A stretch of DNA of 64,000 nucleotides from Escherichia coli 042 (GTDB lineage Bacteria > Pseudomonadota > Gammaproteobacteria > Enterobacterales > Enterobacteriaceae): NCBI RefSeq assembly GCF_000027125.1, contig NC_017626.1. One strand, written 5' to 3'. The translations under genes and the position numbers were made by a program. The notes beneath the pieces were generated by a model. The model did not search any database. It worked only from the letters and a program-made list of their open reading frames with translations, and was not told the origin of the DNA. Shown here in pieces: positions 40,338-43,015 of this stretch (positions within the stretch are counted from its first letter, which is position 1; each line of letters begins with the position of its first letter).

Positions 40338-40619
40338 TCACATCCAGCTACGGAGTTGATGCTCAACAGCAACCGCGTGTTCATCGAATAATGACGATAT
40401 TTGCGAATCATTAATGATGCGCACATTTACAAAATATCCGTCCTCCTTAACACATGCCGGCTCGCCATCTTCAGTAAGTTCTCCGGTTTCTTTGTACACA
40501 TTACCTATCACGTCAATAAGAATATCATCCTGCATCGACTCGTCATCATAATAGCCAATGCTCTCCATAAAGGCCGAAAAGTCGGCCCTGTCTGCAAATT
40601 TGAGTGTTAAATCTTTCAT
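40338..40619 (-). CDS. small acidic hypothetical protein between the tail fiber and the S74-domain gene
   Basis: 93-aa ORF, no recognisable family; tightly packed between neighbours on the same strand. Confidence 0.45.
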   Translation of the reverse strand: MKDLTLKFADRADFSAFMESIGYYDDESMQDDILIDVIGNVYKETGELTEDGEPACVKEDGYFVNVRIINDSQISSLFDEHAVAVEHQLRSWM

Positions 40620-43015
40620 TTAATACTCTCCCCCATTTGCGCATCAGTTAATTCTTTATGCCAGAGACGAAGATTTCTCAAATGGCCGAATAGATGACGA
40701 GTTCCCGATGTGGCTTGACCTCCAATTCGAATAAAGGTCCGTGTTTTTACGCCCGTCCACTCCGTTTTCATAGTTTTAGTAGCCTCACCGTTAGAAACTA
40801 CTCGTTTAGTACCATCAGAATAAATATTAAAACCACCAATGAATTTTCGAACATCAGCTCGACCAGCAAACACACTAGAAACGTAAGTACTTGTCGACGC
40901 TTTATAAGTTTGCATATAAAGCTGACCGTAATATTTCTCAGTTGTGTTAAAAGCGTATGTAATTGACTCAATAGGTGGCACACCAGAAAAATCAAAAATA
41001 CGCGGTGCTACATTAGGAGGAATATCGCCCCAAATTCTATTAACCTCGACAAGACACGTAAGCGGTCTATTATAGATATTATTTTTAGTTGGAATCGTCA
41101 CCATATCACTGGAGCGGGTTGCGGGTGCAGTTGTCGTAATAACAAAAGATGAAGCACATCCGCCGTTTTCAAATTGTGGTGTTGCAAGGTAAATATAATC
41201 TCCCGCTTCAGTTATACCACCTTTTTTCGGCGCATACTGAATCATTGCGCCAATTAAGGTTTCACCTTCAACAGCTTCTATAGTTGCCTCATAGAAAATC
41301 CACCCTGTAACCGGATCTTTAGTTGCAGTAGCTGCTATTCTATTGGCTGCCCCGCCAGTTTTTTCTATTATCAGAGTTCCGAAAGTTAAATAAGCATCTC
41401 CTAAAAATGTATAAACCGACCCATCGTATTTTTCAAAACGCAAACGACAACGAAGACCATCAGGAGCTTTAACCCTGCATGAAACAGTGCAATACTTATT
41501 ATCGCCACTAACATCAATCCCCCGGGATGCACTGCATCTATGCAGACTAAGTGCAGATGATTGTCCTGTCATATTATCTTTTGTTCGCATTTTGGCATAT
41601 GAAAAACCAAATTCATCAACACCATTATTAGTTTTATCGATATTGCTGGTACTCGTCCATTCAGCGGGAGTATTGGATTTAACAAAATAGTTAGTGCGCT
41701 GTCCTTCAATCAATAAACCTTCTTTTTCAAATCGTGGCTCATCAATTTTAGCAACACTAAATACGCCTGATTTATTGATATATGTGGCAGTTGATGCGCG
41801 TTTAAACTTAACAACCTTGTCGCCAGGCATCGTTATTTCATCATCACCAATAACAATTTTTTTATATGACGGCGAAAAGCCCGTAATCATATCCAGTGAA
41901 TCGTTAAACGGTATCCACACATCAGGCAGTGGCTGTAAGACATATTTATACGGCTCTGCTGCCTGACTTGCATACTCTCTGGCTGCATCTTCGCTTGCTT
42001 TAGCTGCCGTCTGGCTTGCTGCCGATGCTTTCGCTGAGTTCGCAGCCGCTGTTTCGCTCACCTTTGCGTTGGTTTCACTGGTTTTTGCTGCTTTTTGACT
42101 GTTAGCTGATGCAGTTGCAGAAGCAGCCGCCGCGCTTGCAGAACTGGCTGCGGCACTCTCGCTTTGGGCCGCTGCATCCTGACTGCTTTTCGCCGCAGTT
42201 TCACTGGCTTTGGTATTCGTTTCGCTGGTCTTCGCTGCCGCCTGGCTGGACTTTGCGTTAGTTTCACTCGTCTTCGCAGCTTTCTGGCTGTTAGCCGCAG
42301 CAGTTGCTGATCCAGCTGCTGAAGTCGCAGAACCGGCTGCCGCGCTCTCGCTTTGGGCTGCTGCAACCTGGCTGTTTTTTGCTGCAGTTTCACTGGCTTT
42401 AGCATTCGTTTCGCTGGTTTTCGCTGCCGTCTGGCTGGACTTTGCGTTGGTTTCGCTCGTCTTTGCGGCTGTCTCGCTATTTTTCGCGTTGGTTTCTGAT
42501 TTTTTGGCTGCTGTCGCGGAGTTTGCCGATGCAGTCTTTGAGGTCGCTGCCGCCTGTGCACTATTAGCTGCATTCGTTTCTGAGGTTTTCGCCGCGTTCT
42601 TTGATGATGCCGCTGCAGTTTCGGATTTCTTTGCCGCCGCTGCGCTCTGAGAGGCGGCTTCGGCGTTGCGTGCCACTTCTTCCACCATTGCCTCAAAACG
42701 ACGCAATGCCTCCGGCATGACATCATCTTCCGTCATGGCACCGAGAAAATCATTCAGCGTACCTGGTCTGGAGCCTTCATAGACGGTAATGGTCCCGGCA
42801 TGTGAAGGCGGAAAACCTTCAACCAGCAGGGTGACGCTGTACTGGCCATACTCAACATCCATGCTGTAACGTCCGGCTTCATCCGGATTTTCAGAAGCCA
42901 CCGTGTTCACCAGTACCGTGGTGCTGTTACGCTTTGCCTTCAGTTGAATAGTGCAGTTCTGTATTGGTTTTCCCGCACCATCTTTCAGCACACCTGAGAT
43001 TTTTACTGCTGCCAT
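40616..43015 (-). CDS. stf: side tail fiber protein with lambda Stf-like N-terminus, internal Ala/Ser-rich repeats and a distinct C-terminal domain
   Basis: N-terminus (MAAVKISGVLKDGAGKPIQNCTIQLKAKRNSTTV...SMDVEYGQYSV) closely matches lambda Stf as I remember it; the track start is a GTG two codons upstream. Confidence 0.85.
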   Translation of the reverse strand: MAAVKISGVLKDGAGKPIQNCTIQLKAKRNSTTVLVNTVASENPDEAGRYSMDVEYGQYSVTLLVEGFPPSHAGTITVYEGSRPGTLNDFLGAMTEDDVMPEALRRFEAMVEEVARNAEAASQSAAAAKKSETAAASSKNAAKTSETNAANSAQAAATSKTASANSATAAKKSETNAKNSETAAKTSETNAKSSQTAAKTSETNAKASETAAKNSQVAAAQSESAAAGSATSAAGSATAAANSQKAAKTSETNAKSSQAAAKTSETNTKASETAAKSSQDAAAQSESAAASSASAAAASATASANSQKAAKTSETNAKVSETAAANSAKASAASQTAAKASEDAAREYASQAAEPYKYVLQPLPDVWIPFNDSLDMITGFSPSYKKIVIGDDEITMPGDKVVKFKRASTATYINKSGVFSVAKIDEPRFEKEGLLIEGQRTNYFVKSNTPAEWTSTSNIDKTNNGVDEFGFSYAKMRTKDNMTGQSSALSLHRCSASRGIDVSGDNKYCTVSCRVKAPDGLRCRLRFEKYDGSVYTFLGDAYLTFGTLIIEKTGGAANRIAATATKDPVTGWIFYEATIEAVEGETLIGAMIQYAPKKGGITEAGDYIYLATPQFENGGCASSFVITTTAPATRSSDMVTIPTKNNIYNRPLTCLVEVNRIWGDIPPNVAPRIFDFSGVPPIESITYAFNTTEKYYGQLYMQTYKASTSTYVSSVFAGRADVRKFIGGFNIYSDGTKRVVSNGEATKTMKTEWTGVKTRTFIRIGGQATSGTRHLFGHLRNLRLWHKELTDAQMGESIK
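42040..42520. repeat. tandem direct repeats (about 183 bp unit, about 2.6 copies) inside the stf coding sequence
   Basis: Near-identical DNA blocks (for example GCAGTTTCACTGGCTTT...GCTGGACTTTGCGTT) recur at about 183-bp spacing and encode repeated KTSETNAKSSQAAAKTSETNAKASETAAK...SESAAA blocks. Confidence 0.6.

Follow-up and report, generated by a model that had tools for sequence, protein, structure and literature searches.

The side tail fiber (Stf) of Ur-lambda consists of a collar (residues 1-91), 12 copies of which lie around the gpV/gpM junction, a linker (residues 92-101), and a proximal trimeric coiled coil (residues 102-393), followed by a hinge, a gp37-like distal rod, and a receptor-binding domain (PMC12617516). 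In engineered lambda-P2 Stf chimeras, a foreign C terminus on the N-terminal part of lambda Stf retargets adsorption (bioRxiv 10.1101/2022.09.30.509847). The head spike fiber of RcGTA, the gene transfer agent (GTA) of Rhodobacter capsulatus, gave the NCBIfam family NF048003 its name; this protein has two domains, is lectin-like, and binds capsular polysaccharide (PMC10218006). The present study concerns a side tail fiber gene, stf, on a 64,000-nucleotide stretch of Escherichia coli 042 DNA (contig NC_017626.1; hereafter, the window), in which a lambda-type collar and shaft are joined to a head with two predicted lectin domains. The exchange of Stf tips is textbook knowledge and well established.

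Lambda-type collar and shaft of stf

We consider that stf probably encodes a functional side tail fiber of a lambda-like prophage, built from three exchangeable parts: a collar, a shaft, and a head. The gene and its parts are located as follows (aa, amino acids; ORF, open reading frame; ConA, concanavalin A).

40616..43015, minus strand: stf, side tail fiber gene; intact ORF of 799 aa, ATG after GGAG (phrog_1419; dN/dS)
42737..43015, minus strand: collar (anchor) domain of the lambda Stf type, aa 1-93 (PF08400; PDB 9e7m)
41954..42712, minus strand: coiled-coil shaft, trimeric by analogy with lambda, aa 102-354 (heptad layout; lambda alignment)
42281..42469, minus strand: repeat unit 1, 63 aa/189 bp, aa 183-245
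42092..42280, minus strand: repeat unit 2, 63 aa/189 bp, aa 246-308, identical to unit 1 at 158 of 189 nt
40616..41953, minus strand: receptor-binding head, predicted as two tandem ConA-like (LamG-type) beta-sandwich domains, aa 355-799
41111..41713, minus strand: predicted lectin domain 1, aa ~435-635 (NF048003; variable core aa 449-613)
40619..41086, minus strand: predicted lectin domain 2, aa ~644-799 (conservation profile; C termini of 47 relatives)

The gene is a single long ORF with its stop end at 40616, and its product ends in ...RNLRLWHKELTDAQMGESIK. The longest reading opens at a GTG at 43021 (801 aa). The ATG at 43015 has GGAG 5 nt before it and a terminator-like hairpin of lom just upstream, and the NCBI annotation pipeline picks the same start in a related genome; therefore, 40616-43015 (799 aa) is the correct extent of the gene. 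The phrog_1419 profile ('tail protein') matched the product end to end (positions 1-793 of 793, E = 0, 1,423 bits).

The lambda-type collar was identified by PF08400 (phage_tail_N in Pfam) at aa 5-134 (E = 5.5e-67) and by the solved lambda Stf collar 9e7m/9mgh (residues 2-94, E = 8e-49), to which the protein is ~90% identical over aa 5-97. A BLASTP comparison with lambda Stf, the sequence of which was checked against J02459 (99.6% identity), aligned aa 3-344 with lambda residues 2-356 at 58% identity. Similarity then ended, with none past lambda residue 356. Taken together with the domain map of Ur-lambda Stf, this alignment indicates that the lambda type extends over collar, linker, and shaft, repeats included. 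The preliminary description of this DNA, which was based on the sequence alone, had called the N-terminal ~130 aa lambda Stf-like. The likeness is confirmed by PF08400 and 9e7m, but not the limit because lambda homology covers aa 3-344. By analogy with Ur-lambda, the collar would anchor three chains to the tail just above its tip. When the full protein was compared with solved structures, the only matches were the collar and, in the shaft, low-complexity matches to N-terminal regions of a depolymerase and T5 pb1.

The position of stf also resembles that of its lambda counterpart: the gene order J-lom-stf, all on the minus strand, is that of lambda. In contrast, the lambda distal rod, the OmpC-binding tip, and the downstream Tfa gene were not found at the stf locus. 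The 445-aa head takes the place of the hinge, the gp37-like distal rod, the OmpC-binding tip, and the Tfa chaperone, and the position of tfa is occupied by a gene for 93 aa (orf93). The arrangement is like that of the lambda-P2 chimeras in having the N-terminal part of lambda Stf joined to a foreign receptor-binding C terminus; however, the chimeras are man-made and carry a P2 gpH tip, whereas stf is natural and carries a predicted lectin-type head.

The dN/dS ratio (nonsynonymous to synonymous substitution rates) of stf was 0.16-0.18 against two related alleles, a sequence-based measure indicating purifying selection. Phage PhiR49_1 (PV340568.1; host in the record, E. coli ECOR13) carries stf at 97.7% nucleotide and 98% protein identity. 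It shares the whole gene and the downstream genes for 93, 234, and 95 aa, and differs by point differences and an annotated start further upstream. Phages of the same PhiR naming series are described as plaqued lambda relatives, in passages that do not name PhiR49_1. Furthermore, an IMG/VR provirus (IMGVR_UViG_646862322_000006) was 100% identical over 4,294 bp (window 39326-43619), and the protein cluster at 98% identity (P0152) has 2,393 members. The architecture is already known as sequence from phrog_1419, this cluster, and an isolated phage; the finding is correct but ordinary.

These records bear on the view that stf is a decaying, unused prophage remnant, the repeat variation of which reflects neutral drift or an assembly artifact. 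In some genomes, the equivalent gene is annotated by the NCBI pipeline as two pieces, a pseudogene and a shorter coding sequence, and the prophage ends only ~400 bp past the downstream gene cassette, both of which fit a remnant. However, the ORF is intact in the window and in the split-annotated genome, the dN/dS ratio is low, an isolated phage has the gene, 31 of 189 nt are different between the two repeat units, and hundreds of complete genomes contain the array. We give this view almost no weight. In NZ_CP033884.1, an intact 799-codon ORF (6007-8406) is annotated as a partial pseudogene and a shorter 'phage head spike fiber domain-containing protein'. A frameshifted stf was rejected as a candidate since this split annotation overlies an intact ORF and is an artifact.

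The C-terminal head and its distribution

The last 445 aa showed no similarity to the lambda tip, in agreement with the preliminary description, which had found the C-terminal ~400 aa unlike that tip and had read them, without confidence, as a different receptor-binding domain. That reading now gains support from sequence and structure predictions. NF048003 (head-spike-fiber) matched at 58.7 bits against a curated cut-off of 36 (E = 1e-15), with model positions 1-181 of 182 at aa 437-637 in the numbering of the 801-aa reading. The structure prediction proposed in the preliminary description was performed with AlphaFold2 for the head as a monomer, with 43 relatives in the alignment, and gave a confident all-beta model with two lectin-type domains (predicted local distance difference test [pLDDT] 90.6, predicted template modeling score [pTM] 0.88). 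The modeled domains have the curved two-sheet beta-sandwich of solved lectins and carbohydrate-binding modules (CBMs), as expected of a ConA-like/LamG fold. The top structural matches of the head were AbnA domain 4, CBM40, and pentraxins, and Foldseek also returned tandem laminin-G/neurexin LNS pairs and baseplate proteins of phages Pa193 and E217. The last of these (Pa193 gp46 and its E217 counterpart; 9b45, 8env) are 12-16% identical to the head and differ from it in being components of a myovirus baseplate wedge rather than a fiber tip.

Conservation over the 43 relatives divided the head into framework segments (aa 359-448, 614-643, and 764-793) and variable cores (aa 449-613 and 644-763). 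Lectin domain 2 contains a conserved C-terminal motif, HLFGHxRNxRxWHxxLTDxQ, which was derived from the C termini of 47 relatives. Each predicted lectin domain would thus have conserved edge strands and a variable core.

On the basis of the model, the head is most likely a tandem lectin-type receptor-binding module for a surface glycan. It would bind a surface polysaccharide (the O-antigen, lipopolysaccharide core, or capsule) in the first, reversible step of adsorption. The RcGTA head spike fiber (rcc01080) is similar in that lectin domain 1 exceeds the NF048003 cut-off and a beta-rich, lectin-like structure of two domains is predicted for the GTA protein. However, the GTA fiber is attached to capsid vertices via a 10-residue N-terminal anchor, whereas the stf head would form the tip of a tail fiber on a long coiled coil, and the likeness is confined to the domain level. 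A literature search found no description of an E. coli prophage with a Stf tip of the ConA/LamG type.

We weighed glycan binding against two other functions of the head. Lambda Stf targets OmpC (PMC12617516; bioRxiv 10.1101/2022.09.30.509847), and the fold matches include LamG/LNS domains (neurexin and laminin), which commonly bind proteins; the head may, by analogy, bind an outer-membrane protein instead of a polysaccharide. On the other hand, the best structural matches are CBMs and lectins, the sole characterized sequence relative, that of RcGTA, binds a capsule (PMC10218006), and identity in the variable cores falls to 30-50% between closely related E. coli prophages, in line with how diverse surface glycans are. 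A protein receptor is, therefore, an unlikely target in our judgment. An enzymatic head (a glycanase, lyase, or esterase that degrades the capsule or O-antigen) would make stf a depolymerase fiber rather than a lectin fiber, and enzyme folds were among the structural matches. These scored far below the non-catalytic lectin and CBM matches, there was no match to a glycoside-hydrolase or lyase family in Pfam or NCBIfam, and the invariant residues belong to the conserved edge strands rather than to the variable cores, which suggests a structural role. We regard an enzyme as very improbable.

The head is also widespread. With the 445-aa head as the query against 1.84 billion representative proteins, ~2,000 relatives were retrieved, 409 of them at E <= 1e-10. 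All full-length matches that were inspected (438-1,481 aa) had the head module at the C terminus, and it was found on at least five different anchors, including those of the lambda Stf type, P2 gpH (PF12571), and Tail_spike_N, and several others. Three related protein clusters differed from stf as follows (amino acid identity to stf).

P0173: collar and shaft 98-100%; lectin domain 1 57%; lectin domain 2 98-100%
P0004: collar and shaft 93-98%; lectin domain 1 56%; lectin domain 2 34%
P0001 (different siphovirus prophage, unrelated anchor): collar and shaft 20-35%; lectin domain 1 92%; lectin domain 2 90%

By this sequence comparison, the mosaic is nested: P0173 swaps lectin domain 1 only, P0004 both domains, and P0001 the anchor, with a head that is 90-93% identical. 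The view of the preliminary description that this is a mosaic fiber, with a lambda-type collar and shaft joined to a different C-terminal module, is therefore well founded. Sequenced phages match stf up to nucleotide ~897 (in repeat unit 2) or ~1296 (aa 432, in the first framework segment) and then diverge. Among 5,426 complete E. coli genomes, ~1,050 contain a 151-nt piece of the shaft, compared with 224 for the whole gene in its two-unit form; carriers of the stf allele are often ST131-type genomes. The breakpoints and the difference between the shaft and whole-gene counts indicate that tips are exchanged in the shaft and in the conserved framework strands.

Other fibers with this head were also noted. 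In P0006 (1,014 aa), an additional globular region of ~215 aa lies between a lambda-type shaft and the lectin head, and represents a fourth exchangeable position. Several infant-gut 'Lambda_...' phages, among them 'Escherichia virus Lambda_2E9' (LR595860.1, 2998-5600), encode a 673-aa fiber with a shorter shaft and a lectin head of the same family. In these phages, the fiber gene is followed by genes for 92 and 97 aa, without the lambda Stf tip or Tfa.

Length alleles of the coiled-coil shaft

Within the shaft, aa 131-354 form 32 uninterrupted heptads of the pattern SxxxAxx, which is typical of a small-core coiled coil. Judging from this pattern and the 58% identity to lambda Stf, the shaft is homologous to the Ala/Ser-rich proximal coiled coil of lambda Stf. 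It would be a trimeric coiled coil with a small Ala/Ser core that includes a diverged duplication of nine heptads.

The preliminary description had reported ~2.6 near-identical repeats of 61 aa/183 bp. Tandem repeats do exist; however, their length is 63 aa/189 bp and there are two full units, 84% identical in nucleotide sequence, and a stub. Tandem Repeats Finder gave a period of 189 bp with 2.2 copies (83% matches, score 582, 42062-42478), and a self-comparison of stf showed only the 189-nt offset. The units share 54 of 63 aa, differ at 31 nucleotide positions, and match exactly in register over 18 consecutive nt at most; the putative third copy has only approximately its first two heptads in common with them. 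Each unit is exactly nine heptads, corresponding to ~9 nm of helix (calculated at ~0.15 nm per residue for an alpha-helical coiled coil). The preliminary description had named an assembly artifact as the outcome that would overturn its account of the repeats. This is ruled out by the 31 differences between the units and by the presence of the same array in 224 of the 5,426 genomes, PhiR49_1, and the IMG/VR provirus.

The comparison of copy numbers across related prophages, which had been suggested as a check, revealed natural one-, two-, and three-unit alleles, so that the proposed ability of the repeats to change fiber length holds. Shaft lengths were counted from protein and locus lengths, not from a nucleotide probe. 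Among the 120 best protein clusters, 97 have a two-unit shaft and 20 are shorter by exactly 63 aa, namely, one unit. Most of the 64 complete genes in IMG/VR proviruses also have the two-unit shaft, regardless of the type of head, and one (L091, 855 aa) has three units. In the one-unit allele of locus L010, a single gap of 189 bp (window 42214-42402 by alignment) interrupts DNA that is otherwise 98.2% identical, and the remaining unit is a hybrid of units 1 and 2, as expected from recombination between the two units. Further differences in shaft length among the IMG/VR genes (-14 and -49 aa, and -105 aa in the more diverged L023) are all multiples of seven.

From these comparisons of sequences, the array is expandable and contractible, and the heptad register is almost invariably kept. 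Recombination between units would gain or lose whole heptads, thereby shifting the length of the fiber with the register of the coiled coil intact. The low identity between the units indicates that such events are rare. A 151-nt probe across the L010 junction was tried as a counter of one-unit alleles and rejected as non-discriminating because it was found in ~1,050 genomes with varied tips and aligned without gaps to two-unit alleles as well.

Two further ORFs overlie the heptad shaft: one of 222 aa in an alternative frame (42058-42726, minus strand), rich in Arg, Gln, and Pro, and one of 146 aa in antisense (42210-42650, plus strand), rich in Ala, Val, and Phe. Both are in the ORF list, as the preliminary description had pointed out in calling such frames spurious. 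They are low-complexity by-products, to judge from their composition, and are unannotated in related records.

Neighboring genes and implications

The genes around stf are as follows.

40338..40619, minus strand: orf93, 93 aa, conserved partner of the head module, where lambda has tfa; its ATG overlaps the stf stop codon (ATGA)
39624..40328, minus strand: orf234, short fiber-like protein, coiled coil at the N terminus and Peptidase_S74 intramolecular chaperone domain at the C terminus (PF13884, phrog_3299)
39326..39613, minus strand: orf95, small hydrophobic protein, last gene of the cassette (phrog_1443)
43032..43053, minus strand: terminator-like hairpin in the lom/stf gap
43080..43679, minus strand: lom, Ail/Lom outer-membrane protein, upstream of stf (phrog_108, E = 2e-107)
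43747..47142, minus strand: J, central tail fiber/host specificity protein (1,131-aa ORF; the equivalent is annotated as gpJ in related records)

The genes orf234 and orf95 closely follow orf93, each with its own Shine-Dalgarno sequence. A homologous gene for 88-110 aa (28-99% identity) directly follows the head-bearing fiber gene, with any anchor, in every locus examined, namely, those of a P2-like myovirus, 'Lambda_2E9', four metagenomic contigs with other anchors, the P0001 prophage, and L010. In 80 IMG/VR loci with a small gene at least 88% identical to orf93, the identity of lectin domain 1 ranged between 30% and 100%. The conservation of orf93 beside a divergent lectin domain 1 indicates that the small protein tracks the module, not its specificity. 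The head travels between phages with a translationally coupled gene for ~92 aa and usually also with a gene for a hydrophobic protein of ~95 aa. No family for orf93 was found in Pfam, NCBIfam, or PADLOC, and a homologue search returned only close E. coli 'hypothetical proteins'. A model of orf93, built from an alignment of seven diverse homologues taken from genomic loci, showed a small alpha/beta domain (pLDDT 85) that had no meaningful structural neighbor. PHROG, NCBIfam, and family searches related none of orf93, orf234, and orf95 to Tfa. From its position and linkage, we infer that orf93 may be an assembly or accessory factor for the head, analogous to Tfa.

The orf234 product matched PF13884 weakly at aa 116-172 (E = 2.2e-5) and the C-terminal end of phrog_3299 (E = 5e-139), which suggests an S74 chaperone domain. 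Its N terminus, MATSTVIPDDI..., is common to S74 proteins of 231 and 366 aa at the equivalent position elsewhere. Among the related loci with sufficient downstream sequence, orf234 was present in 22 of 50 and orf95 in 48 of 50. The orf95 product has no Pfam family and is 80% identical to its counterpart in a P2-like prophage; it may be a lysogen-protection or receptor-masking factor.

Several side observations were made on these genes. An S74 short-fiber gene follows the ~92-aa gene in four of nine distinct head-module loci, including L006 (2472-3167) and L011 (8764-9864), and L010 repeats the downstream arrangement of the window. Three S74 proteins have the conserved N terminus MA[TS]xTVIPxDI... 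and middle parts that differ. Lambda-like and P2-like prophages have orf95 products that are 80-89% identical, a much stronger conservation than that of the fiber heads they accompany. The boundary of the identical IMG/VR provirus coincides with the stop codon of orf95.

By its sequence, the conserved S74 N terminus resembles a docking signal by which a second, exchangeable fiber would attach. A broader reading, which we offer tentatively as possible but rather doubtful, joins these elements. The lectin head and the ~92- and ~95-aa proteins would be a self-contained host-range cassette that moves in one piece between fiber genes of siphoviruses and myoviruses, with approximately half of the loci adding an S74 mini-fiber (MA[TS]xTVIPxDI). 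The 92-aa protein would be a new accessory factor, a chaperone or adaptor, in the place of Tfa. The mini-fiber would dock on the framework of the head, giving a branched fiber with two specificities, and the hydrophobic protein would mask the receptor, protecting the lysogen or released virions.

The window is chromosomal E. coli DNA in which the prophage borders zinT, and the same junction is present in ST131-type genomes. The stretch GGTCTCGAAAACCGGAGTAGGGGCAACTCTACCGGGGGTTCAAATCCCCCTCTCTCCGCCA, at ~38910-38970 of the window (minus strand), looks like a tRNA-Ser gene without its 5' third. Situated ~400 bp past the last cassette gene and ~700 bp from zinT, it is probably the duplicated core of the attachment site at the prophage end. 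ARAGORN found no full tRNA in the window, and Rfam gave only weak, sub-threshold matches at 38915-38966.

Several points weigh against the reading of stf as a functional, three-part fiber with a glycan-binding head. The assignment of glycan binding is by analogy, from the fold class and a distant homologue in an alphaproteobacterial GTA. ConA-like/LamG domains, for example those of neurexin, also bind proteins, and glycanases and lyases are found among ConA-like folds. The model of the head is that of a monomer, whereas the shaft would be trimeric. The orf93 protein is unlike known fiber chaperones (Tfa/gp38 type) in sequence and fold. Regarding the shaft, three single sequences deviate by lengths other than whole heptads (-44, -4, and +3 aa). 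Moreover, the units share at most 18 nt of exact identity, so that slippage or recombination should be rare, and the two-unit form is strongly dominant.

The three-part fiber remains our preferred reading. In the literature that was searched, the lectin identity of the tip, an obligate small partner gene, and whole-heptad alleles of the shaft were not found; they add modestly to what is known and do not amount to a novel type of system. The current understanding is unchanged, and stf is a clear but ordinary example of the swapping of host-recognition modules. Side tail fibers govern the first step of host recognition, and, thus, the tip decides which strains are reached by a temperate phage or a lambda-based delivery particle. 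The head is common and modular and has its own small partner gene, and these features recommend it as a practical choice for redirecting lambda-based vectors when its receptor has been identified. The length of the shaft may influence fitness, and the one-, two-, and three-unit alleles provide a natural series for relating fiber length to capsulated or long-O-antigen hosts.

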